From a virus (Duplodnaviria; Heunggongvirae; Uroviricota; Caudoviricetes): 21,678 nt of DNA. The notes beneath the pieces were generated by a model. It made no database searches, was not told the origin of the DNA, and saw only the letters and a list, made by a program, of their open reading frames with translations. Positions 10,211 to 21,678 of this stretch are shown here, piece after piece. The stretch is from IMG/VR virus record IMGVR_UViG_2617271049_000016; one strand, written 5' to 3'. A program made the position numbers and the translations under genes. Every line of letters begins with the position of its first letter. Positions within the stretch are counted from its first letter, which is position 1.

Positions 10211-10489
10211 TTACCTCCAGATCCGTTGCTGGAAAGTGCGGGACGCACGTGGTGGGCGTTCGGAATAAGGCAGCCTGACAGAGATTATCCAGTGCCGATA
10301 GTCGAGACTGAGAGCTTTCTTAACCTCGAACCCGCGCCTGCGGTAAGAATGAATCAGCCATTCGGCCTGTTCTGCAGTGCATGGAGGGTGCTGGAACCAT
10401 TCAGACTTGAATGCGTGAGAATACCGCCCGTGCGTGCAGGCAAGAACGGGCGAATTATCAGAATTGTAATATTTTGCGTTGCGTGCCAT
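10211..10489 (-). CDS. Hypothetical protein (92 aa), coupled to ydfU
   Basis: ATG at 10489 with a GGAGA SD 6 nt upstream; its stop overlaps the ydfU SD; protein-like composition. Confidence 0.45.
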   Translation of the reverse strand: MARNAKYYNSDNSPVLACTHGRYSHAFKSEWFQHPPCTAEQAEWLIHSYRRRGFEVKKALSLDYRHWIISVRLPYSERPPRASRTFQQRIWR

Positions 10490-10555
10490 CGGTTTTCTCC
10501 GGTGGCACGGTGTTACTCAGCGGGAGTTCAGCCCCGCGCAAGATTGTAGATGAGT

Positions 10556-10807
10556 TTATTCTCCTGAAAAAGCAGAAAAGCCAGCTTTTATTCCGATCTC
10601 TTTCAATGCCTGTAATGAAGTGACAAACTCACCTTCGCGCAAGATAAATCCGTCCGTGACCCGAGCATCCACAAAATTAATTAACGCAGCCCCATTCTTT
10701 CGCAAACACATAATGCGGTAATGACTAACAAGATTTCCATTTTCAACGCACACAGCATAGAGGCCATCTTCACAAAAAATTTTACGCAGTTCTTCGATGT
10801 TCATCAT
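10556..10807 (-). CDS. rem: Rem-like protein (83 aa)
   Basis: Intact ORF MMNIEELRKIFCEDGLYAVCVENGNLVSHYRIMCLRKNG...; position between ydfU and hokD. Confidence 0.7.
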   Translation of the reverse strand: MMNIEELRKIFCEDGLYAVCVENGNLVSHYRIMCLRKNGAALINFVDARVTDGFILREGEFVTSLQALKEIGIKAGFSAFSGE

Positions 10808-10937
10808 CAGAATCCTTCCGGATAATTAGCTCTCCCCTTTAAGGGACCATCCCTCTTATCCCTGCGCGCTACTTAAGTATTTTTGATTCTATTCCGGCAC
10901 CGTCAAGAACTTCAAACGCGTTGAAAATAAAAACAAA

Positions 10938-10955
10938 AACCCGCCGAAGCGGGTT
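10938..10955 (-). terminator. Rho-independent terminator downstream of relB-relE-hokD
   Basis: cccgc-cgaa-gcggg hairpin followed on the minus strand by TTTTTGTTTTT. Confidence 0.6.
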
Positions 10956-11023
10956 AAGTGCGGGTGCGTTGAGGATGCCTGCCACATCAGAGGTGGCGAG
11001 GGATTTCTCCCCCGCCGGGTCTC

Positions 11024-11179
11024 TTACTCCTCAGGTTCGTAAGCTGTGAAGACAGCGACCTCCGTCTGGCCGGTTCGGATTCGTACCTCGCAGAGGTCTT
11101 TCCTCGTTACCAGTGCCGTCACTATGACGGTTAAACAGATGACGATCAGGGCGATTAACATCGCCTTTTGCTGCTTCAT
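11024..11179 (-). CDS. hokD: Hok-family type I toxin (51 aa)
   Basis: Manual translation MKQQKAMLIALIVICLTVIVTALVTRKDLCEVRIRTGQTEVAVFTAYEPEE; too short for the ORF track. Confidence 0.85.
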   Translation of the reverse strand: MKQQKAMLIALIVICLTVIVTALVTRKDLCEVRIRTGQTEVAVFTAYEPEE

Positions 11180-11250
11180 AGCCTGCTTCTCCTGTCAACG
11201 CAAAGCAGAAGTGTCACCTTCGGTGCGAAACAGAGATGTCATGCTTTGGT

Positions 11251-11531
11251 TCAGAGAATGCGTTTGACCGCCTCGCTATATACTTCCGAGCGTTCTCTTT
11301 TCCCAACAGAAATCACGAAAACGACAACTTTCTCGTCTATAACCTGGTATACAAGGCGATAGACCGGAGCTTAATCTTGTAACAATCAGGCATACCACGG
11401 AGCTTGTTTGCTTCAATCCGGGGTGACTCAAGTACTTCAACCAGCTTCTTTTTCAACTGTTCACGTACCGTCGAGCCCAGCTTTCGCCATTCCTTTAGTG
11501 CCCGCTCGTCAAAATCCAGAAAATACGCCAT
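11251..11531 (-). pseudogene. relE: relE toxin gene with an apparent 7-bp deletion causing a frameshift (64-aa truncated product)
   Basis: N-terminal frame MAYFLDFDERALKEWRKLGSTVREQLKKKLVEVLESPRIEANKLRGMPDCYKIKLRS then shifts; the RelE C-terminus YRLVYQVIDEKVVVFVISVGKRERSEVYSEAVKRIL is intact in the other frame down to the native stop at 11251; about 7 nt are missing relative to RelE as I recall it. Confidence 0.65.
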
Positions 11532-11770
11532 CAGAGTTCATCCAGCGTCACACGTACTGGCTTAGGATTACGAAGCCGTTCTTTCACTATCTCCACAAGT
11601 TCAGCATCTTCATCACTCAGGAGTGTCTGTTTGAACGGCAAGCGTTCATTGTCAGCGATATACTCGAGCATGAGACGAAGCGCTTCAGAAGGAGTTACAC
11701 CCATTTTTTCAAGCGCGGCGTAAGAACGCGCTTTAAGTTCATCGTCAATACGCAGGTTAATGCTACCCAT
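11531..11770 (-). CDS. relB: RelB antitoxin (79 aa)
   Basis: MGSINLRIDDELKARSYAALEKMGVTPSEALRLMLEYIADNERLPFKQTLLSDEDAELVEIVKERLRNPKPVRVTLDEL; its stop overlaps the relE ATG. Confidence 0.9.
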   Translation of the reverse strand: MGSINLRIDDELKARSYAALEKMGVTPSEALRLMLEYIADNERLPFKQTLLSDEDAELVEIVKERLRNPKPVRVTLDEL

Positions 11771-11781
11771 GTCTTACACCT

Positions 11782-11807
11782 CTTGTAATTACAAATGTCA
11801 TTACAAG
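11782..11807 (-). promoter_or_regulatory. relBE operator/promoter region (relO-like inverted repeats)
   Basis: cttgtaattacaa and tgtcattacaag palindromic repeats starting 12 nt upstream of the relB start. Confidence 0.55.
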
Positions 11808-12100
11808 TATCGCACTACAACATGCTTAGGGCAAGTCACGAAGGAAGTCAGAAAGTAGTCGTAAGAACGGTGATCACTGTCCGCTTTGTGCCAGGAGCAG
11901 CCATTGCTAAGTCCATCCTGTATTGTGCAGGTCAGCTCGTTTTTAAAGAGTCCGGCCATCATCTTACTGGTACAGACACCATATACTTTGTGACGGTCAG
12001 GCTACATATGCACAACTCAACTTATTCATCTATTTTTTGCTTTAGCATGTCAGTGTTGCTTTCTCGTCGGCGGGTGAGCGGTGACCTGACCTGTCGATAA
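11795..12100 (+). CDS. ydfV: YdfV-like ORF (101 aa); coding status doubtful
   Basis: ORF at the Qin ydfV position; overlaps the relB promoter region; low-complexity composition. Confidence 0.3.
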   Translation: MSLQVSHYNMLRASHEGSQKVVVRTVITVRFVPGAAIAKSILYCAGQLVFKESGHHLTGTDTIYFVTVRLHMHNSTYSSIFCFSMSVLLSRRRVSGDLTCR

Positions 12101-12252
12101 AGGAACGTAACACGTTTTATGCAACACCCGCATGCGGCAGAAAATTATTGCCGAACGTTTACCCCTGTCAACAAGCTTTACTTTCTGAGGCGCGCCAGCC
12201 CGCGAGGAAAACAATCTGAACATCAAACAATTAATGACACAAGAAATACGAT

Positions 12253-12279
12253 TAAAGATTTTTTTGTGCATGCCGATAG
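12253..12279 (+). promoter_or_regulatory. Sigma-28 (FliA) class 3 flagellar promoter for flxA
   Basis: TAAAGATT, 11-nt spacer, GCCGATAG against consensus TAAAGTTT-N11-GCCGATAA; AGGAG SD follows before the flxA ATG. Confidence 0.75.
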
Positions 12280-12302
12280 TGCTTTTTTAAAAGGAGAAAT
12301 CT

Positions 12303-12635
12303 ATGTCTGTCACAATTCAGGGAAATACCTCAACCGTTATTTCAAACAACTCCGCCCCGGAAGGAACATCAGAAATAGCCAAAATCACAAGACAAATTCA
12401 GGTGCTGACTGAAAAGCTTGGGAAAATCTCATCGGAAGAGGGGATGACGACACAGCAGAAAAAAGAAATGGCTGCATTGGTACAGAAGCAAATTGAAAGC
12501 CTCTGGGCTCAACTGGAGCAGTTGTTAAGGCAGCAGGCAGAGAAAAAGAATGAAGACGCGACAGTTCAGCCTGATAAAAAAGAAGAGAAAAAAGACGATA
12601 CAAATACCGCTGGCACCATTGATATTTACGTCTAA
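12303..12635 (+). CDS. flxA: FlxA (FliA-regulated protein, 110 aa)
   Basis: MSVTIQGNTSTVISNNSAPEGTSEIAKITRQIQVLTEKLGK...; sigma-28 promoter upstream; terminator downstream. Confidence 0.85.
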   Translation: MSVTIQGNTSTVISNNSAPEGTSEIAKITRQIQVLTEKLGKISSEEGMTTQQKKEMAALVQKQIESLWAQLEQLLRQQAEKKNEDATVQPDKKEEKKDDTNTAGTIDIYV

Positions 12636-12649
12636 GTGACAGCCGTATT

Positions 12650-12672
12650 GTGGCCCTCATCGGGCCACTTTT
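12650..12672 (+). terminator. Rho-independent terminator of flxA
   Basis: gtggccc-tcatc-gggccac stem-loop followed by TTTT. Confidence 0.6.
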
Positions 12673-13071
12673 CGCCATCAGCCTTTTCTTTAAAGACATA
12701 TTATCTTTGTATCATTTCTGATAGTTAACATTACAAGATATAAGTAATGGACGCACTCCCAATTAGTCTATTTAAATCGCCACGAGTTTAACTGACAACC
12801 CATGATCAATTATGAATTGCAACTATTTCTGTAGTCACTTTTGTGGGGACAGTCCACAAAACTGCCAACTTCCGCTTCTTGCTCTTAGCGGACATTAGCA
12901 TAGGCTATTTACCATAACGCCTCATTACGCGCACCGCCCAGACTGACTCAGCGCGTTTCTGGCATATCCCCGGTAAAACAAGTAACAAACCACCCGAAAA
13001 TGAACACCAGAAACGCGACTTAAGAATCTACCCTATGAATGGATATGCACTCAACCGAATCGATCTTGGTT

Positions 13072-14281
13072 TCAATCTTTTTTATCGGGATCAGGCTTCT
13101 TTTTAGGTAACTTCGGGGGCTTAACTTGCTGATGACTTTGCGTTCGGCGCGTAAGCCAGGGATGGTCAGCTTTAGGTTTAACATAGTATTTTGAGCGTAA
13201 ATCAATACGGGCATTATCCACTCGTTCATGGACACTCTTTTCATCATCCAGTGGTATAGGCTCCGGGCCATCAACATACTTTTCCCAGCCCAGCGCTTTC
13301 CCGTCATACAGAACGTTAATTTCACCGTCAAAGTTCTCGCATACAGTAACAACCGAATGCCTAAGTCGATATCCCCGGCCCTCACTGCGTACCTGAAACG
13401 CACTGCTTTTGTACTGGAAAGTGAGATTTTTAGACAGAACGCGCTTCGCCTGTAGGCTGAAGATATAACCCAGTTCCTCTTCAGAATGGTGCACATCAAG
13501 ATGAGCATTATCAGTAGTACGAGGCGACGTAGCGAACCGGTTGTTATAGGCTTCAATAAAGGTCGGCAACCATGCATTTGGCATGGATTGGCTCGATGCC
13601 CAGTGTCTTTATCGCACGAGTGAACTGGGTCAGCTCACCTTCCCGCTCTGGGTTATTTACCCTGAATATACTCTGTCTATCAGAGTAGAGAGCGAGCGGT
13701 ACGCCATGATCATTAAGGTAACCCCGGAGGGTTTCCATGTAAGCCCGGGTTGTTTCAGCAGGCACAAAACGCAACGCCATCAACGCACTGGTGGCATCAT
13801 CAATGAAAACGATCAGTGTACATCTGGGGCCTCGATTTTCAAACCAGTCATGAGGTGAGCCATCAATCTGGATCAGTTCACCGTAAGATGGTCGTCGCAT
13901 GCGGCGTTGATATATACGGGCAATTTTACGACGGCGTTCACGCCATAACCCCTCTTCTATCATCCACTTTCTGAGAGTTTCAACGGATAAAGATAAACCG
14001 TGTATCTCGCGCAATTTTTCGCACGCAAACGTAGGTCCAAAATCAGCGTAACGGCCTTTGAGGAGTGAAATTACTGTTGCTCTGAATTCAGTAGAAAAGG
14101 AATTATTAGGACGCTTTCCACGTCGGTGGGAAACCAGACCAGAAGGCCCTTCATTTCTATACCGTTGCACCAGACGTTTAACCTGCCGAATAGAAATGCC
14201 AATGCGTGCCGCAGCTTGTTCCTGAATAATCTGAAGTCGGTGGAGTTCCTTATGACTCATCGTAACAGTCTCTTTGATCAT
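13072..14281 (-). pseudogene. rve-type DDE transposase/integrase-like gene (HTH plus integrase core), split across two frames by an internal deletion
   Basis: ORF A (13553-14281) has an HTH and the first two catalytic Asp (IQIDGS..., LYSDRQ); ORF B (13072-13584) has the post-catalytic NAWLPTFIEAYNNRF segment. The two frames overlap at 13553-13584 and the expected Glu-containing segment is absent. Confidence 0.6.
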
Positions 14282-14615
14282 GAAAAATCCCCCAGAGAAT
14301 TGTCTGGGGACATTTTAGAATGGTTCAAAGGGGACATTACAGCTTGGTGTTAACAATAGCCTGCTTCTCCGTGCCTTTCGGCACGTAAGAGGCTAACCTA
14401 CATGTGTCTAGCATGAAATTGGCCTCAGATTAATGTTAAGCGTCTTGCAGGACGCGTAATGTTAACTGGGGCTTTTCTCTATCTGCCGTTGGTGTCCATG
14501 CCCGAGGCAGATAGCCTCAAGCACCCGCAGTCATTCTACTTAACTAAGATTTCCCCGCAAACCGTTTTTGTCCAGCACAGTAAATATCCAACTAAACCAA
14601 TGGAGTTCGCTGTAT

Positions 14616-14795
14616 TTACCGCCAGTATTCAATGCACATGACCGCCATGAACACCCCTAAAAAAAGGGCATTTATATATCCAAATATTAATATCAAAACA
14701 TCAACTTTTTCCATATACCTTGCTGTGAAGATGATGGGCATACATGATGCGAACAACCAGAACGCAACAAACAAAAACTGCAATGCGTTTTTCAT
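14616..14795 (-). CDS. Small hydrophobic two-TM membrane protein (59 aa), function unknown
   Basis: ATG at 14795 preceded by AGGAGG with 5-nt spacing; MKNALQFLFVAFWLFASCMPIIFTARYMEKVDVLILIFGYINALFLGVFMAVMCIEYWR. Confidence 0.5.
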   Translation of the reverse strand: MKNALQFLFVAFWLFASCMPIIFTARYMEKVDVLILIFGYINALFLGVFMAVMCIEYWR

Positions 14796-15049
14796 TATTC
14801 CTCCTACAATCAATGTGCAATTACATTTAAACACACCTCAATTTGGCCGGACATATAAATATCTAAACCAGAAAAAATCACTTACATAGCGTTACAAACT
14901 CTTTAGTCTAAAGGTTCATCGTAAAACATTCCCCATACTTATCAGTCCGTTCCGCGCCAGGTAGCTCATTGCCTTATCTGGCAACCTGTAATCAGGTTTC
15001 CGCTTTTTCAGTTGGCTGGTCGTTTAACCGACATAGTTAATCCATTAAT

Positions 15050-15337
15050 CTAGTTGCCGGATGTTGGTGGATTTTCGCGTTTTAGTTGTTCATAAAAGTG
15101 CACAGCTTTAACCAGTTCTTCTGATGTAACTGGGACTGGTGAGGCAGTGAATAAGGCCTGAATTTGATAGTTCGGCCTGTCGTTACAATCCTCTTTTTTC
15201 GGTACATATTTCCAGTCACCAGACCACTACTTCCCCTGAAAGTCCGTAACGCCTTTTTTCACGTAGCGATATCGCCATGCCACTGGTTTTGCTTGCCCCG
15301 CCGTTTCATGCCCTTCCTGATAATTAATCTCGCTCAT
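15050..15337 (-). pseudogene. 95-codon ORF interrupted by one in-frame TAG (at 15227-15229)
   Basis: MSEINYQEGHETAGQAKPVAWRYRYVKKGVTDFQGK-TAG-WSGDWKYVPKKEDCNDRPNYQIQALFTASPVPVTSEELVKAVHFYEQLKRENPPTSGN; the distal part has no start codon of its own; the ATG overlaps the stop of the upstream ORF (ATGA). Confidence 0.45.
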
Positions 15338-15525
15338 TCATCGCCCCACTCATCACAATATGCTTCGACCGGAGTTTTTCCCGCTTCATAGTCATCACGC
15401 TAGGATTCGACATCAGCAGCACTTCCACCGCGTAACTCACCATAGTCCATTAATAGTTCATCCCGCTCTTCAAAACTGATGTTATATTTAGCTGAACAAA
15501 AATCAGCCACTTTGTTCTTCCTCAT
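15334..15525 (-). pseudogene. 62-codon acidic ORF interrupted by one in-frame TAG (at 15400-15402)
   Basis: MRKNKVADFCSAKYNISFEERDELLMDYGELRGGSAADVES-TAG-RDDYEAGKTPVEAYCDEWGDE; its TGA stop overlaps the ATG of the next ORF. Confidence 0.35.
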
Positions 15526-15947
15526 CGTCTTTTATTTCGTGGTATGAGTAATTGCAGTAGTTAAAGAAAATTTCTTATGCTCCGTCATGAATTTCCTCAG
15601 GTGTTGCGTCATCGTCCACTTCGAATACATCCTCAAAATCTCCACCAGCTATTCCCGTTTCAATAATAATTTTGAACTTTCGCATTTCACTACCGCCCTT
15701 TCGGGCGGCCTCCTGATGTTCTGAGGGTGCAGAAATCCATCCGGTTAAGGATTAAATTTTATTTACAGAACTGAATTTAATTATTCAGATATACGTATCT
15801 GTAGCCTTACGAATCTACTCACTGGATGCCTCTTTCATAAAAATAATCCAGTGGGTTTTATCGTTTTTTCCCTGTTCGTTGACAGATAACAGGTTTTCTG
15901 TCTGTCAGTGCCAGAATCTGGCTTACCGGTATTTGCGTTTCATTCCA

Positions 15948-16304
15948 TTAAAAAATCAGAACGCCGTGCGGCCTCAACACCCGAAAGGCTTCTTTAAATC
16001 TCTGTCGCGAATCATCACGCCAGGCATCTTTATTCAGCCGTCCATATTTCTTTCCCATCCAGGCGTTATCACCAACACTCTCAAGATGCGGAGGGTCTAA
16101 TACAACCATCGAAAAAGATGCGTCTGCAAATGATAATGCACGAAAATCTGCGATAATGTCAGGGCTGATAATCAAGCGTCTCCCATTGCGTAATGTGTAT
16201 CCTTCTTTTCTGATATCGCTGAATATCGCCCGTTCGTCAGACTTATCGAACCAGAACATGCGGCTGCCACAGCACATATCAAGAATGGTTGCCGGTGCAC
16301 TCAC
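15948..16304 (-). pseudogene. N-terminal fragment (118 aa) of an amino-methyltransferase-like protein (motif I-like, DPPH motif), C-terminus missing
   Basis: ILDMCCGSR (motif I-like) and VVLDPPH (motif IV-like) about 55 aa apart; the ORF ends with no downstream continuation in any frame; the start overlaps the stop of the upstream 140-aa ORF. Confidence 0.45.
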
Positions 16305-16723
16305 TGCGCCACGTCCTGAAAATTACCCTGATAGAAAGCCAGTATGCGCTGCATAACTTCGCTCTTCCGGCACTCGCGACAGATTATGTTTAGGCGACTG
16401 TCGTAGCGACGTATTTCTCCGTCAGGTGATGACCAGATAAGGTCCGGATCAACCACAGCAGGTTTCTTCACCTTTGCCCTCGAGAGTTTTTTGCGGGCGT
16501 TTTGCCAGTCCTTACGCGCCTGTTCAGAGGGGAATAACCCGTAGCCGGAGTTGTATACATCGCCACTGGCTACCAGCTCTCTGGCAAGAACGCTCATCAG
16601 ATATCTAGTCGCACCTGTTTTAGCTTCCAGTTGCCGTAACGTCTCACGGCCGCTCTGGCGCACGAGTTCCACCACCTGCCATTTAATTTTTTCCCGCTCT
16701 TCTTGTGTAAAAACTTTTGCCAC
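16301..16723 (-). CDS. Hypothetical protein (140 aa), translationally coupled to the methyltransferase-like gene
   Basis: Intact ORF MAKVFTQEEREKIKWQVVELVRQSGRETLRQLEAKTGATRYLMSVLAREL...; ATGA overlap with the downstream gene. Confidence 0.5.
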   Translation of the reverse strand: MAKVFTQEEREKIKWQVVELVRQSGRETLRQLEAKTGATRYLMSVLARELVASGDVYNSGYGLFPSEQARKDWQNARKKLSRAKVKKPAVVDPDLIWSSPDGEIRRYDSRLNIICRECRKSEVMQRILAFYQGNFQDVAQ

Positions 16724-16763
16724 AAGTCCCCCTTAAAATTACCTCATGACCTGAAATCAACAC

Positions 16764-16988
16764 TTATCCTCTGAAACCAGGCGGAATTTCTGTATCCGGT
16801 TCAGAAATATGATTAACACAACGCTGTACAGGTGAACGTCCCAGGCGGATGACCAGTTCGTCCCATTTTTCGCGGAGCTTTGACGGGCTCATGATGTTTT
16901 TTACCCAGAATGGATCTCGCTGAACCCGACCAAACATTTCGCAAATTTGTCTGTGGCTTCTGCCATCCAGCATCCGCATTGTGCGCAC
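16764..16988 (-). CDS. Hypothetical protein (74 aa) with a possible HTH, divergent from the dicB operon
   Basis: Intact ORF ...SHRQICEMFGRVQRDPFWVKNIMSPSKLREKWDEL...; function not recognised. Confidence 0.35.
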   Translation of the reverse strand: MRTMRMLDGRSHRQICEMFGRVQRDPFWVKNIMSPSKLREKWDELVIRLGRSPVQRCVNHISEPDTEIPPGFRG

Positions 16989-17095
16989 GTCATTGGCCCA
17001 GGCAGTCCAGTTATCCGGCGTTAATTGTTAACTGGTTAACGTCACCTGGAGGCACCAGGCACTGCATCACAAAATTCATTGTTGAGGACGCGATA

Positions 17096-17284
17096 ATGAA
17101 AACGTTATTACCAAACGTTAATACGTCTGAAGGTTGTTTTGAAATTGGTGTCACTATCAGTAACCCAGTATTTACTGAAGATGCCATTAACAAGAGAAAA
17201 CAAGAACGGGAGCTATTAAATAAAATATGCATTGTTTCAATGCTGGCTCGTTTACGTCTGATGCCAAAAGGATGTGCACAATGA
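17096..17284 (+). CDS. dicB: DicB cell-division inhibitor (62 aa)
   Basis: MKTLLPNVNTSEGCFEIGVTISNPVFTEDAINKRKQERELLNKICIVSMLARLRLMPKGCAQ; GAGGA SD 9 nt upstream. Confidence 0.8.
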   Translation: MKTLLPNVNTSEGCFEIGVTISNPVFTEDAINKRKQERELLNKICIVSMLARLRLMPKGCAQ

Positions 17285-17472
17285 ATTCAGCATTTGTGCT
17301 TGTTCTGACAGTTTTTCTTGTTTCCGGAGAGCCAGTTGATATTGCAGTCAGTGTTCACAGGACAATGCAGGAGTGTATGACTGCAGCAACCGAACAGAAA
17401 ATTCCCGGTAACTGTTACCCGGTCGATAAAGTTATTCACCAGGATAATATCGAAATCCCGGCAGGTCTTTAA
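17281..17472 (+). CDS. ydfD: YdfD-like small lytic membrane protein (63 aa)
   Basis: MNSAFVLVLTVFLVSGEPVDIAVSVHRTMQECMTAATEQKIPGNCYPVDKVIHQDNIEIPAGL; ATGA overlap with the dicB stop. Confidence 0.7.
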   Translation: MNSAFVLVLTVFLVSGEPVDIAVSVHRTMQECMTAATEQKIPGNCYPVDKVIHQDNIEIPAGL

Positions 17473-17564
17473 AACAGTTCCGTAATAAATATCCGGTTTC
17501 ATTCTTATATGCCAGCAATGGCAGGGATTTGTTCATCCTTAAATCTGTCATGAGGTTAAAACAA

Positions 17565-20039
17565 ATGAGTAAAGTCTTTATTTGCGCCGCTATTCCTGAC
17601 GAACTGGCAACAAGGGAAGAAGGCGCTGTGGCTGTAGCCACAGCCATTGAAGCTGGCGACGAACGCCGTGCTCGAGCAAAATTTCACTGGCAATTCCTGG
17701 AACATTATCCGGCTGCTCAGGACTGCGCTTATAAATTTATTGTCTGCGAGGATAAACCTGGCATACCCCGCCCTGCCCTCGATTCATGGGATGCTGAATA
17801 TATGCAGGAAAACCGCTGGGATGAGGAGTCTGCTTCTTTTGTCCCGGTTGAGACTGAATCCGATCCGATGAACGTCACTTTTGACAAGCTGGCCCCTGAA
17901 GTACAGAACGCTGTCATGGTTAAGTTCGACACATGTGAAAACATCACCGTTGATATGGTTATTAGCGCACAGGAATTGTTGCAGGAAGACATGGCAACAT
18001 TCGACGGACATATCGTTGAAGCGTTGATGAAAATGCCAGAAGTTAACGCCATGTATCCGGAGCTTAAGTTGCACGCCATTGGGTGGGTTAAGCATAAATG
18101 TATTCCTGGTGCTAAATGGCCCGAAATTCAGGCAGAGATGCGCATCTGGAAAAAACGTCGCGAAGGTGAACGCAAGGAAACCGGAAAATACACGTCTGTT
18201 GTTGATCTCGCCCGCGCCAGAGCCAATCAACAGTACACTGAAAATTCAACAGGAAAAATCAGCCCGGTCATTGCTGCCATTCATCGCGAATACAAGCAGA
18301 CATGGAAAACACTGGATGACGAACTGGCCTACGCTCTCTGGCCTAGTGATGTGGATGCCGGAAACATTGACGGCAGCATCCATCGCTGGGCAAAAAAAGA
18401 AGTTATCGACAACGACCGCGAAGACTGGAAGCGTATCTCGGCATCAATGCGCAAACAGCCTGATGCCCTTCGCTACGACCGCCAAACTATTTTTGGCCTT
18501 GTCCGTGAGCGTCCGATCGACATTCACAAAGNNNNNNNNNNAGCACTGAACAAATATATCTGCGAATACCTGACGACAAAGGGCGTGTTTGAGAATGAAG
18601 AAACAGACCTGGGCACTGTTGATGTTCTCCAGTCATCAGAAACACAAACTGATGCAGTGGAAACTGAGGTATCTGATATCCCAAAAAATGAAACCGCGCC
18701 GGAAGCTGAACCATCTGTAGAGCGTGAGGGGCCGTTCTATTTCCTCTTCGCAGATAAGGACGGAGAAAAATACGGTCGCGCAAACAAACTCTCTGGTCTG
18801 GATAAGGCACTGGCTGCTGGCGCCACTGAAATCACAAAAGAAGAATATTTTGCCCGAAAAAATGGCACATACACGGGCTTACCGCAAAATGTAGATACCG
18901 CTGAAGATTCAGAACAACCAGAGCCGATAAAAGTTACCGCTGACGAAGTAAACAAAATTATGCAGGCAGCCAATATCAGCCAGCCTGACGCCGATAAGTT
19001 GCTTGCTGCATCACGTGGTGAATTTGTTGAAGGGATTAGTGACCCGAATGATCCGAAATGGGTTAAGGGGCTCCAGACCCGCGATTCTGTGAACCAGAAC
19101 CAGCATGAATCGGAACGGAACTACCAAAAAGCGGAACAAAACAGTCCAAATGCGTTACAAAACGAGCCAGAAACGAAACAGCCTGAACCAGTAGCGCAAC
19201 AGGAAGTGGAAAAAGTCTGCACCGCCTGCGGTCAGACCGGCGGCGGCAACTGCCCTGATTGTGGCGCGGTGATGGGCGACGCAACATACCAAGAAACATT
19301 CGATGAAGAGTATCAGGTTGAAGTTCAGGAAGATGATCCGGAGGAAATGGAAGGCGCTGAACATCCACACAAGGAGAACACTGGCGGCAATCAGCATCAC
19401 AATAGCGATAATGAAACTGGCGAGACGGCAGATCACCCAATTAAGGTGAACGGTCATCACGAAATCACATCCACCAGCAGGACGTGTGACCATCTAATGA
19501 TCGACCTTGAAACCATGGGAAAAAATCCTGATGCCCCGATCATCTCAATAGGTGCAATATTTTTCGATCCGCAAACCGGAGATATGGGACCGGAATTTAG
19601 TAAGACTATCGATCTGGAAACTGCTGGCGGAGTCATTGATCGGGACACCATTAAATGGTGGCTTAAGCAATCACGCGAAGCGCAATCTGCCATTATGACC
19701 GATGAAATCCCGTTAGATGATGCACTGTTACAATTGCGAGAATTTATCGACGAAAACTCCGGTGAATTTTTTGTTCAGGTTTGGGGAAATGGAGCCAACT
19801 TCGACAACACGATTTTGCGCCGTTCATACGAACGGCAGGGGATCCCCTGCCCGTGGCGTTACTACAACGATCGCGATGTACGCACAATCGTTGAGCTGGG
19901 GAAAGCCATAGACTTCGATGCCAGAACGGCTATTCCATTCGAAGGTGAGCGCCATAATGCACTTGATGACGCCCGTTACCAGGCAAAATACGTTTCAGTT
20001 ATCTGGCAAAAACTGATCCCGAGTCAGGCTGATTCTTAA
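17565..20039 (+). CDS. ydfE: Large prophage exonuclease-family protein (824 aa): YdfE-like N-terminal domain, RecE-like acidic linker with a Cys4 zinc ribbon, C-terminal DEDDh (DnaQ-like) 3'-5' exonuclease domain; contains a 10-N gap
   Basis: ATG at 17565 with GAGG 9 nt upstream. C-terminal motifs MIDLETMG (Exo I), VWGNGANFD (Exo II) and [13 protein letters not shown] (Exo III). [31 protein letters not shown] resembles the RecE linker as I recall it. The frame is maintained across the N-run. Confidence 0.7.
18531..18540. other. Run of 10 N (assembly gap or masked bases) inside the exonuclease gene
   Basis: Literal n characters in the sequence; the only ambiguous bases in the window. Confidence 0.99.
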
Positions 20040-20111
20040 TGTTCAACTGTCGCCGGTTGTGACTGGTATTCTGCAACCGGCGCTCGTCTGATGTAAGAGA
20101 TAAAGAAATCG

Positions 20112-20363
20112 ATGAGCGAAGTAATCATGATTGTCTCTCCCGGCAAATGGGTATCCGAAGAGCAGTTAATTGCGCTGAAAGGAATAAAAAAAGGTACGTT
20201 AAAAAAGGCCCGGGAAAAATCGTTTATGGAAGGAAGGGAATATAAGCATGTCGCTCATGACGGTATGCCATGGGATAACAGTCCATGCTTTTACAACCTG
20301 GAAGAAATTGATCGCTGGATTGAGCGCCAGGCATCAGCGAGACCAAGACGTCATCTTACTTGA
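20112..20363 (+). CDS. Excisionase (lambda Xis-like, 83 aa)
   Basis: EGREYKHVAHDG resembles the lambda Xis DGREYLFHE region; position immediately upstream of int. Confidence 0.6.
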   Translation: MSEVIMIVSPGKWVSEEQLIALKGIKKGTLKKAREKSFMEGREYKHVAHDGMPWDNSPCFYNLEEIDRWIERQASARPRRHLT

Positions 20364-20397
20364 CTAAAAGCCACACTAACTAATGAGAGAAGTTGAA

Positions 20398-21678
20398 ATG
20401 AAATATCCGACAGGCGTGGAAAACCATGGAGGGAAATTACGTATCTGGTTTGTTTATAAAGACGTAAGAGTCAGGGAAAATCTGGGGGTTCCTGACACAG
20501 CAAAAAACAGGCGCGTTGCAGGTGAACTACGCTCCTCTGTTTGTTACGCAATAAAAACTGGTGTTTTCGACTATGCAAAACAGTTTCCCTCCTCACGCAA
20601 TCTGGAAAAATTTGGTGAGGCCCGACAAGATTTAACCATAAAAGAACTGGCTGAAAAATTTCTGGCACTGAAAGAAACTGAAGTCGCCAAAACATCACTC
20701 AACACATACCGTGCCGTCATCAAAAATATCCTGAGCATAATCGGTGAAAAAAATCTTGCCTCATCGATTAATAAAGAAAAATTACTGGAGGTTCGTAAAG
20801 AGTTACTGACTGGATACCAGATCCCCAAAAGTAACTATATTGTTACACAACCAGGGAGATCGGCTGTAACTGTAAATAATTACATGACAAATCTTAACGC
20901 CGTGTTCCAGTTTGGTGTTGATAACGGTTACCTGGCAGATAATCCGTTTAAGGGGATCTCGCCATTAAAGGAATCAAGAACCATTCCGGATCCTCTTTCG
21001 CGGGAAGAATTTATCCGTCTTATCGATGCGTGCAGAAATCAGCAAGCAAAAAATTTATGGTGTGTTTCTGTTTATACTGGAGTTCGCCCTGGTGAGCTGT
21101 GTGCACTTGGATGGGAGGACATAGATCTGAAAAATGGAACAATGATGATCAGGAGAAATTTAGCAAAAGACCGTTTCACGGTACCAAAAACACAGGCGGG
21201 AACCAATCGGGTCATTCATCTTATTAAGCCAGCAATCGACGCTCTCCGGAGTCAGATGACATTAACGAGACTGAGCAAAGAGCATATCATTGATGTTCAC
21301 CTCAGAGAGTATGGCAGAACAGAAAAACAAAAATGCACCTTTGTTTTTCAACCTGAAGTGTCAGCGAGAGTAAAAAATTATGGTGACCATTTTACCGTTG
21401 ACTCAATAAGGCAGATGTGGGACGCAGCGATAAAACGTGCCGGACTCCGCCATCGAAAATCATATCAGTCGAGACATACTTATGCCTGCTGGTCGCTGAC
21501 AGCTGGTGCTAACCCGGCATTTATAGCAAACCAGATGGGCCATGCAGATGCGCAAATGGTATTTCAGGTATACGGAAAATGGATGTCTGAAAACAATAAT
21601 GCACAGGTAGCTTTGTTAAATACACAGTTAAGCGAGTTTGCCCCAACCATGCCCCATAACGAAGCAATGAAAAATTAA
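20398..21678 (+). CDS. intQ: Tyrosine site-specific integrase (426 aa from ATG at 20398), apparently intact, stop at window end
   Basis: Catalytic signature ...YTGVRPGEL..., ...SRHTYACW... and ...MGHADAQMVFQVYGKWM...; terminal position reading toward the presumed att site outside the window. Confidence 0.8.
   Translation: MKYPTGVENHGGKLRIWFVYKDVRVRENLGVPDTAKNRRVAGELRSSVCYAIKTGVFDYAKQFPSSRNLEKFGEARQDLTIKELAEKFLALKETEVAKTSLNTYRAVIKNILSIIGEKNLASSINKEKLLEVRKELLTGYQIPKSNYIVTQPGRSAVTVNNYMTNLNAVFQFGVDNGYLADNPFKGISPLKESRTIPDPLSREEFIRLIDACRNQQAKNLWCVSVYTGVRPGELCALGWEDIDLKNGTMMIRRNLAKDRFTVPKTQAGTNRVIHLIKPAIDALRSQMTLTRLSKEHIIDVHLREYGRTEKQKCTFVFQPEVSARVKNYGDHFTVDSIRQMWDAAIKRAGLRHRKSYQSRHTYACWSLTAGANPAFIANQMGHADAQMVFQVYGKWMSENNNAQVALLNTQLSEFAPTMPHNEAMKN

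Follow-up and report, generated by a model that had tools for sequence, protein, structure and literature searches.

Four Nonsense Codons and a Frameshift in Three Coupled Genes of a Qin-Type Cryptic Prophage of Escherichia coli: A Probable Case of Stepwise Gene Decay

Results

Organization of the Locus

The window, which is the whole stretch of 21,678 nucleotides that was analyzed, contains three small coupled genes, and the entire amber-bearing cluster is carried on the minus strand. The first gene (15503-15685) encodes a DUF7167 family protein, as recognized by Pfam PF23768, phrog_1997, and the PGAP annotation. The second, denoted here as ORF A, is related to a 58-aa protein of family phrog_519, and the third, ORF B (14916-15337), is related to a 141-aa protein of family phrog_660. 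All three are pseudogenes. ORF A was originally delimited as 15334-15525; the ATG at 15525 is an in-frame codon upstream of the homologous start, which is a GTG at 15510-15508 in the window and an ATG in the relatives. The start of ORF A overlaps the stop of the DUF7167 gene by 8 nt (15503-15510), with the sequence GTGGCTGA in the window and ATGGCTGA in the relatives. ORF A and ORF B were predicted to be linked by an ATGA overlap of stop and start. This overlap is present at 15337-15334 on the minus strand and is invariant in all of the aligned relatives.

The in-frame TAG codons that had been reported at 15400-15402 and 15227-15229 are both found. The amber in ORF A (15402-15400) falls at codon 37 of 58, where the relatives encode a tryptophan (TGG). 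The first amber in ORF B (15229-15227) is also at codon 37, which is CAG or CCG in the relatives. The original prediction further held that the second open reading frame terminates with TAG. There is indeed a TAG at 15052-15050, but it is not the true terminus of the gene; it is an internal amber at codon 96, where the aligned loci L016 and L019 have CAG, and the gene ran on to 14916. When the codons of ORF B are aligned with those of the intact genes in L019, L016, and L017, a 4-nt deletion is seen between 15019 and 15018, and alignment with intact genes places the ancestral stop, TGA, at 14918-14916. The DUF7167 gene is interrupted at 15577-15575 by TAA (ochre), where the relatives have AAA (lysine). 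In total, four nonsense mutations and one frameshift are found within about 770 nt of the three coupled genes. ORF B also contains an A6 homopolymer at codons 27-28 (15254-15259) that is A6, A7, or A8 in the relatives, where the A7 and A8 tracts belong to frameshifted alleles of this gene.

The translation of ORF A from 15525 to 15334 is MRKNKVADFCSAKYNISFEERDELLMDYGELRGGSAADVES*RDDYEAGKTPVEAYCDEWGDE*, beginning with MRKNKVADF and ending with DVES before the amber codon. The translation of ORF B from 15337 to 15050 is MSEINYQEGHETAGQAKPVAWRYRYVKKGVTDFQGK*WSGDWKYVPKKEDCNDRPNYQIQALFTASPVPVTSEELVKAVHFYEQLKRENPPTSGN*, with MSEINYQ at the start, FQGK before the first amber, WSGDWKYVP after it, and TSGN before the second.

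The profile matches extend across the stop codons. With the TAA read as lysine, the DUF7167 product scores 51.6 bits against PF23768, relative to a cut-off of 24.4, and residues 2-53 cover profile positions 1-60 of 60, which places the restored protein within this family. The phrog_1997 profile aligns to residues 1-57 of the same restored product. The phrog_519 profile runs through the stop codon of ORF A (residues 4-63, E = 5.3e-14) and phrog_660 through the stop codon of ORF B (residues 2-93, E = 8.8e-29). Both phrog_519 and phrog_660 are families without an assigned function, and searches of Pfam and NCBIfam with the intact homologues of ORF A and ORF B returned no significant family. The structure predicted for the intact 141-aa homologue of ORF B from a 27-sequence alignment (mean pLDDT of 55.6 and pTM of 0.46) was too poor for a fold search. 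Scans with Rfam and for promoters and terminators gave nothing between 14916 and 15685 that would point to an alternative, non-coding role.

Identity and Setting of the Prophage

The window belongs to a lambdoid cryptic prophage of E. coli of the Qin type. It contains cspI, rrrQ, cspB, cspF, ydfT, ydfU, rem, hokD, relBE, flxA, dicB, ydfD, exo, xis, and int. Positions 2539-21678 match the prophage of E. coli ATCC 8739 in three blocks with identities of 99.6-99.9%, and the gene list of that prophage also includes nohA, ynfO, essD, and ydfW. In ATCC 8739, int adjoins rspB/rspA, which is the position of Qin in K-12. The window itself ends inside int, and the rspB junction is taken from the 99.6-99.9% identical ATCC 8739 prophage. 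The marker genes occur in Qin order, with integration beside rspB/ynfP. A published survey of 638 Escherichia/Shigella strains, in which Qin is treated as a cryptic ("grounded") prophage, found it at this locus in 48% of them, with a highly variable size and many mutations (Ramisetty & Sudhakari 2019, PMC6379469).

The prophage in the window shares with the Qin of E. coli K-12 both the integration neighborhood (int beside rspB) and the markers dicB, relBE, hokD, cspB, cspF, cspI, ydfT, and ydfU. The two differ in what has been retained. In the Qin stretch of MG1655 that was examined (1643000-1654000) the three-gene segment is entirely absent, and ydfX and dicC come immediately after ydfW. The copy in the window has kept this segment, but dicA, dicC, ydfA, ydfB, ydfC, and dicF are gone. 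These losses are due to a 3.1-kb deletion of the immunity region at about 17012, which has also taken the C-terminal part of an O-like gene and a ydaT-like gene, so that the operon lacks its upstream part. The prophage is damaged elsewhere: the remnant of an ISNCY transposase lies at 13020-14281, and the hok/sok locus is truncated such that sok alone survives (14355-14526).

The three small genes follow the replication genes and the genes for a DUF977 protein and a methyltransferase, and they precede the Q-antiterminator module, the block that contains hok, rem, ydfU, and ydfT (Q). By its place in the gene order, the cassette would be the counterpart of the dispensable nin region of lambda. 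Within the deleted 3.1-kb stretch were the Cro-like gene dicC and the region between dicA and dicC. If pR of lambda is taken as the model, the promoter of the operon with the three genes may have been situated in this stretch and would now be lost.

Sense Codons in the Homologues

For comparison, the cassette was placed in an alignment with records of phages and prophages that include vB_EcoS-640R1, vB_EcoM-606R7, vB_Apl-pPE4, ArgO145, the Rac prophage of strain 442/2, ST131 OY019088, and others. The original prediction had proposed such an alignment as the means of finding the sense codon at each TAG, and it provides one: TGG in ORF A and CAG or CCG in ORF B. The amber site of ORF A is TGG in 640R1, pPE4, ArgO145, the Rac prophage of 442/2, L013-L017, and L019. 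Codon 37 of ORF B is CAG in L017 and L019 and CCG in L004, L005, and L016, while codon 96 is CAG in L016 and L019. The ochre site of the DUF7167 gene is AAA in every aligned haplotype other than that of the window. Intact orthologues with a sense codon are thus found for all four stops (TGG, CAG/CCG, CAG, and AAA). The product of the intact ORF B gene has a length of 141 aa in L019 and of 171 aa in L016, and the stop of the gene is the TGA equivalent to 14918-14916. Among 27 homologues, the residue at the first amber of ORF B is variable (P, Q, S, L, or M) and stands beside a nearly invariant tryptophan.

The intact cassettes (vB_Apl-pPE4, ST131 OY019088, HP1-HP4 of the 442/2 Rac prophage, and ArgO145) have the same gene order as the window, with a DUF7167 protein, a 58-aa protein, and a protein of 119-171 aa. 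They have the same ATGA and ATGGCTGA overlaps, are 88-94% identical to the window in DNA sequence, and likewise follow the replication, DUF977, and methyltransferase genes. In these cassettes the third gene is modular, with variable N- and C-terminal extensions or replacement by an ead/Ea22-like gene, and the fourth gene of the 442/2 Rac prophage is itself frameshifted.

Phage vB_EcoM-606R7 has a TAG at the matching tryptophan codon of ORF A within a different flanking haplotype. This is an independent hit of the same codon. Chance is an adequate explanation for it, although it could hint at selection for loss.

Distribution of the Four Stops

The 851-nt segment is at least 99% identical in 508 complete E. 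coli records, with all four stops. The carriers include ATCC 8739, W, 042, IAI39, CE10, and UMNK88. When a query with all four stops restored was compared with the complete genomes, the best match was 99.5% identical (847/851), with four mismatches, and therefore no complete genome has this haplotype with even one of the stops repaired. A search pattern that left the codons free at both amber sites matched 18 metagenome and 35 IMG/VR contigs. All 53 of these contigs, which have flanks of the window type, have TAG at both sites, and 46 of them show all four stops; the remaining contigs are cut off or rearranged. The two-amber pattern gave no matches among the GTDB species representatives, a result that is uninformative beyond the absence of this exact haplotype there.

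These results bear on whether the TAG codons are errors of sequencing, as had been suggested initially, or of assembly, or whether the region consists of four genuine short genes in their own right or of non-coding DNA. The N-terminal pieces are sometimes annotated as coding sequences, as with the 36-aa "DUF7167 family protein" WP_001224658.1 and with coding sequences in phage PhiR42_1. However, the segments that follow the stops have no start codon, as was noticed originally, and they match the C-terminal halves of the intact homologues residue for residue as well as the PHROG profiles. Homologues that end at the TAG codons had been named as the sign of four separate short genes or non-coding DNA, and the genuine homologues do not end there. 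Errors are contradicted by the identity of the stops across the 508 records of complete genomes and the 53 contigs, which are independent, and by the failure of the restored version to come closer than 847/851. The probability of either of these explanations is negligible.

The segment is fully identical across distant strains of E. coli (ATCC 8739, W, 042, IAI39, and CE10), and such identity is not explained by vertical drift alone. The prophage segment has probably spread recently by horizontal transfer rather than by old vertical descent. A literature search on phage PhiR42_1 (GenBank PV340562), which is 99.9% identical, found no paper, and an active phage that carries the stops is not claimed here.

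Suppression and Recoding of the Amber Codons

It was also suggested at the outset that two amber codons in neighboring genes may have arisen or been tolerated in an amber-suppressor background. The ambers would then be decoded by a host suppressor of the supE or supF type, or by natural read-through, and the genes would still function as sus-like alleles. Three of the four stops are TAG, and the amber of ORF A is followed by a C. The tetranucleotide TAGC is a comparatively weak context for termination. However, of 5424 records only 155 have the supE allele (glnV with a CUA anticodon), and every one of the 60 that were listed is a laboratory strain, in most cases derived from K-12, such as C600, DH1, DH5alpha, and J53. 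None of these 60 is among the 30 carrier strains that were listed, and the Qin stretch of MG1655 that was examined lacks the segment altogether. Judged by the supE anticodon allele alone, the carriers do not constitute suppressor hosts; the amber haplotype resides in 508 records from natural isolates. The TAA codon and the 4-nt deletion are beyond the reach of an amber suppressor. ARAGORN found no tRNA gene in the window, and hence no suppressor tRNA(CUA). The changes found after the first stop of ORF B at invariant positions of the family (see below) also argue against decoding. We consider it very improbable that these codons are suppressed or read through.

A related explanation is that the phage uses a reassigned genetic code in which TAG specifies glutamine (code 15), such that the open reading frames are intact. 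The closest proteins in a collection of 5.8 billion, P0001 (96% identity), P0004, P0121, and P0122, have glutamine at exactly the positions of the TAG codons. The DNA that encodes these four proteins, however, has TAG at those positions, and translation with table 11 does not give the stored products. For these short contigs, the gene-calling programs had evidently settled on a code with TAG = Gln. The four proteins were rejected as intact homologues and are gene-caller artefacts. The genuine CAG alleles, P0007 of L017 and P0005 of L019, are translated correctly with table 11.

Phages in which TAG has been reassigned to glutamine have several in-frame TAG codons in neighboring genes, and the window resembles them in this respect. 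It differs from them in that it has no suppressor tRNA and in that TAG serves as a terminator elsewhere in the prophage (for rzpQ and ydfC, or 2 of 41 coding sequences). Its true homologues have tryptophan, glutamine, or proline at the amber sites, and at the site in ORF A the residue is tryptophan rather than glutamine. The ambers are accompanied by an ochre codon and a frameshift. The in-frame TAG codons are confined to one cluster in the window rather than being present in many genes, and TAG is not avoided as a terminator. Code reassignment can be set aside with near certainty.

Order of Events and Relaxed Constraint

The lesions are nested among the related haplotypes. In L013 and L008, from a haplotype of 92-94% identity, both ambers of ORF B are present and the DUF7167 gene and ORF A are intact. 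In L014, L003, and L015 the TAG nucleotides are found at the position of codon 37, but out of frame behind an A8 tract (a +2 frameshift); the region of codon 96 has been lost, and the DUF7167 gene and ORF A are again intact. The TAA codon and the TAG of ORF A are confined to the window haplotype among those aligned. This distribution indicates that ORF B was inactivated first and that the other two genes were inactivated later. The order of events within ORF B is one that we infer.

ORF B has been broken in other ways. In a sample of about 157 loci from metagenome and IMG/VR contigs, which is biased by the search patterns used, about 58 copies stop at the TAG of codon 37, about 50 are frameshifted (A7, A8, or deletion of a G), and about 48 are intact (171, 119, 104, or 129 aa). 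Insertions of IS elements are also found among the lesions in these contigs.

The substitutions that are private to the window lineage are those of relaxed constraint, with the caveat that mosaic recombination blurs such lineage-specific counts. ORF A has 15 private substitutions, consisting of 9 missense, 1 nonsense, and 5 synonymous changes, and its protein is nearly invariant across eight other loci. The 49 private substitutions in ORF B comprise 24 missense, 23 synonymous, and 2 nonsense changes. Three of the missense changes past the first amber, E58Q, G74E, and T47K, alter residues that show no or almost no variation among the 27 homologues, and thus a maintained read-through product of ORF B is unlikely. 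The changes G5C, T7A, V11I, W16R, H17D, and A24G of ORF A are also found in the intact allele P0123 of metagenome contig L020, and therefore not every missense change need post-date the inactivation.

Number and Type of the Stop Mutations

The number of stops is the neutral expectation and is no more than chance would produce. The DUF7167 gene and ORF A together have 25 private substitutions, and random placement of these yields 0.9-1.3 stops, with a probability of 0.24-0.39 for two or more. For the 49 private substitutions in ORF B, 2.2-2.5 stops are expected. The excess of TAG among the stops (3 of 4) is not significant (P of about 0.09-0.13).

All three of the ambers are G:C-to-A:T transitions, which is the commonest class of spontaneous mutation in E. 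coli. For ORF A, one can speculate that the mutation arose at a Dcm hot spot, where the ancestral TCC TGG would supply the site CCTGG and CCTAG would result if 5-methylcytosine in the other strand were deaminated. None of the 53 contigs combines the GTCGAATCC flank with a sense codon, and the other two ambers are outside of CCWGG contexts.

Discussion

The results described above make it very probable that the ambers are ordinary inactivating point mutations, and that they reflect the stepwise pseudogenization of three dispensable accessory genes in a defective prophage. The original prediction of nonsense mutation in a decaying prophage is upheld by the sense codons in the homologues, the PHROG profiles that cross the stops, the PGAP flags, and the damage to the remainder of the prophage.

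In the proposed sequence of events, ORF B would have been hit first, by two C-to-T changes that converted CAG to TAG at codons 37 and 96 and by the 4-nt deletion. ORF A would have been hit later, in the window lineage only, by a G-to-A change from TGG to TAG, and its start would have been weakened from ATG to GTG. The DUF7167 gene would also have been hit later in the window lineage, by an A-to-T change from AAA to TAA. Premature termination and the loss of translational coupling downstream would then remove the products, and no full-length protein would be made. The inactivated genes have since drifted without constraint, with ambers that are very probably neither decoded, suppressed, nor recoded. 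From the sequence, it appears that the three genes have neither expression nor function. There is probably no read-through, and the truncated N-terminal peptides of 36-41 aa are likely to be functionless.

In a rival explanation, selection rather than neutral drift led to the loss of the three genes, whose products could for example be costly or toxic upon derepression of the prophage, and the nonsense alleles would be adaptive "domestication" mutations. ORF B has been broken in many independent ways (TAG at codon 37, the A7 and A8 frameshifts, deletion of a G, and IS insertions), the same tryptophan codon of ORF A is TAG in two haplotypes (those of the window and 606R7), and the four-stop haplotype is common, with 508 records. 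However, the stop count equals the neutral expectation, intact alleles are also common (171-, 119-, and 104-aa forms, about 48 of about 157 loci in the pattern-biased sample), recurrence at one of roughly 20 sites that are a single step from a stop is not improbable, and none of the three families has a known phenotype. Selected loss is very unlikely on this evidence. Equally unlikely is a broader proposal, in which the repeated knock-outs, together with the unchanged spread of the four-stop haplotype among distant lineages of E. coli, reflect host selection for silencing a costly or toxic early function of the phage, or in which the N-terminal peptides of 36-41 aa have gained a function of their own. 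Neutral, stepwise decay is the explanation that we favor.

The finding is already known in kind, in that RefSeq flags two of the three genes as pseudogenes. In ATCC 8739, whose DNA is identical to the window over 14900-15750, PGAP annotates CJZ69_RS23740 as "hypothetical protein; frameshifted; internal stop" (14916-15337 of the window) and CJZ69_RS24235 as "DUF7167 family protein; internal stop" (15503-15685). The pseudogene conclusion is shared with that annotation. ORF A (15334-15510) is left unannotated in ATCC 8739, and neither the mutated codons nor the order of mutation is stated. In some genomes, what remains of DUF7167, a truncated fragment of 36 aa, is entered by PGAP as an ordinary coding sequence.

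As a textbook example of how the genes of a cryptic prophage decay step by step, the locus has little biological weight by itself. It does have consequences for annotation. Gene calls that read TAG as glutamine on short contigs have placed nonexistent "intact" proteins (P0001, P0004, P0121, and P0122) in the databases, and short contigs of this E. coli segment can be mistaken for phages with a recoded stop codon. The nested lesions, first those of ORF B and then those of ORF A and the DUF7167 gene, provide simple markers for the lineages of Qin-type prophages among strains of E. coli.

One metagenome contig, L020, has the window haplotype and differs from the window at 11 positions, 7 of which are clustered in 15382-15410. 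Within this interval the contig has the consensus sequence, TGG included. The pattern of differences points to a gene-conversion patch at 15382-15410, which may have been transferred in either direction.

Interrupted Gene Run

The original prediction described two coupled ORFs, each with an in-frame stop codon. Both ORFs were found to be interrupted, but the run comprises three genes rather than two, since the coupled DUF7167 gene located directly upstream of the ORF A/ORF B pair (15503–15685, minus strand) also contains an in-frame ochre codon. The codon at 15575–15577 is TAA in the window and AAA in every relative.

The amber site of ORF A was compared across other haplotypes. The contig locus L020 (ENA ERZ27268133 k141_51829) carries the window haplotype apart from 11 differences, 7 of which fall within 29 nt around the amber codon. 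The clustered differences correspond to positions 15382–15410 of the window, and the contig has the consensus sequence with TGG there. This patch is a short gene conversion, by which the amber allele was either repaired or brought into being. A homologue of ORF A with TAG at the same Trp codon was also located in phage vB_EcoM-606R7 (locus L004, ON470580; 1836–1946), within a different flanking haplotype. The amber codon is preceded by different codons in the phage (GCC GAT GCA TAG) than in the window (GTC GAA TCC TAG), and the TAG of the phage is independent of that in the window.

ORF B contains a run of six A residues (A6; 15254–15259, minus strand). In many relatives, namely, the loci L003, L014, and L015 and IMG/VR loci, the run has seven or eight residues (A7 or A8). 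These relatives have frameshifted ORFs of 40 or 85 aa, which annotators have called as proteins. For P0012, P0029, and P0033 in the databases, the reading seems to pass the TAG in a shifted frame and then to return to the frame of the family.

Database Entries and Genome Records

In four public metagenome-derived entries (P0001, P0004, P0121, and P0122; loci L008, L009, and L010), the TAG codons of the E. coli segment are rendered as Gln. These entries were rejected as intact proteins. Such proteins do not exist, and the Gln residues are the product of a TAG-reassigned code that was chosen by gene callers on short contigs. The entries thus place a false signal of stop-codon recoding in the databases.

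The 851-nt segment with the interrupted cassette is present at 100% identity in NZ_CP026085.1 (hit H11), a record of 4.83 Mb labelled E. coli DH5alpha. The Qin stretch examined from K-12 MG1655 does not have this segment, and other records bearing the DH5alpha label, among those listed with the supE allele, are ∼4.6 Mb. NZ_CP026085.1 may be mislabelled or may be no K-12 derivative.

Structure of the Prophage

Relative to the Qin-type prophage of ATCC 8739 (L001), the window has a 3.1-kb deletion with its junction at about 17012; the missing stretch is 18115–21220 of L001. The deletion cost the O-like replication gene its C-terminal part and removed the ydaT-like gene, dicC, dicA, ydfA, ydfB, and ydfC, together with the sRNA gene dicF. 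Beside it, dicB (17096–17284) and ydfD are retained. Because dicB was spared, it is left in the window with neither its known repressor nor its dicF neighbor.

The sok antitoxin RNA of a second hok/sok locus was matched by Rfam at 14355–14526 (minus strand, 104 bits). The toxin ORF of this locus appears to be cut off, since homology to relatives carrying hok/mok ends at ∼14356, where a remnant of an ISNCY-family transposase starts (13020–14281, minus strand).

Over positions 1–2538, the window has no alignment to the ATCC 8739 prophage at the equivalent place, and single-site coverage of the window by complete E. coli genomes never exceeds 93%. The prophage in the window is accordingly a further mosaic or rearranged variant. 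Matches to the cspA-type thermoregulator 5′ UTR were found at 7228–7620 and 4332–4718 (minus strand). They overlap cspB and cspI and extend upstream of them, which is what would be expected of Qin cold-shock genes.
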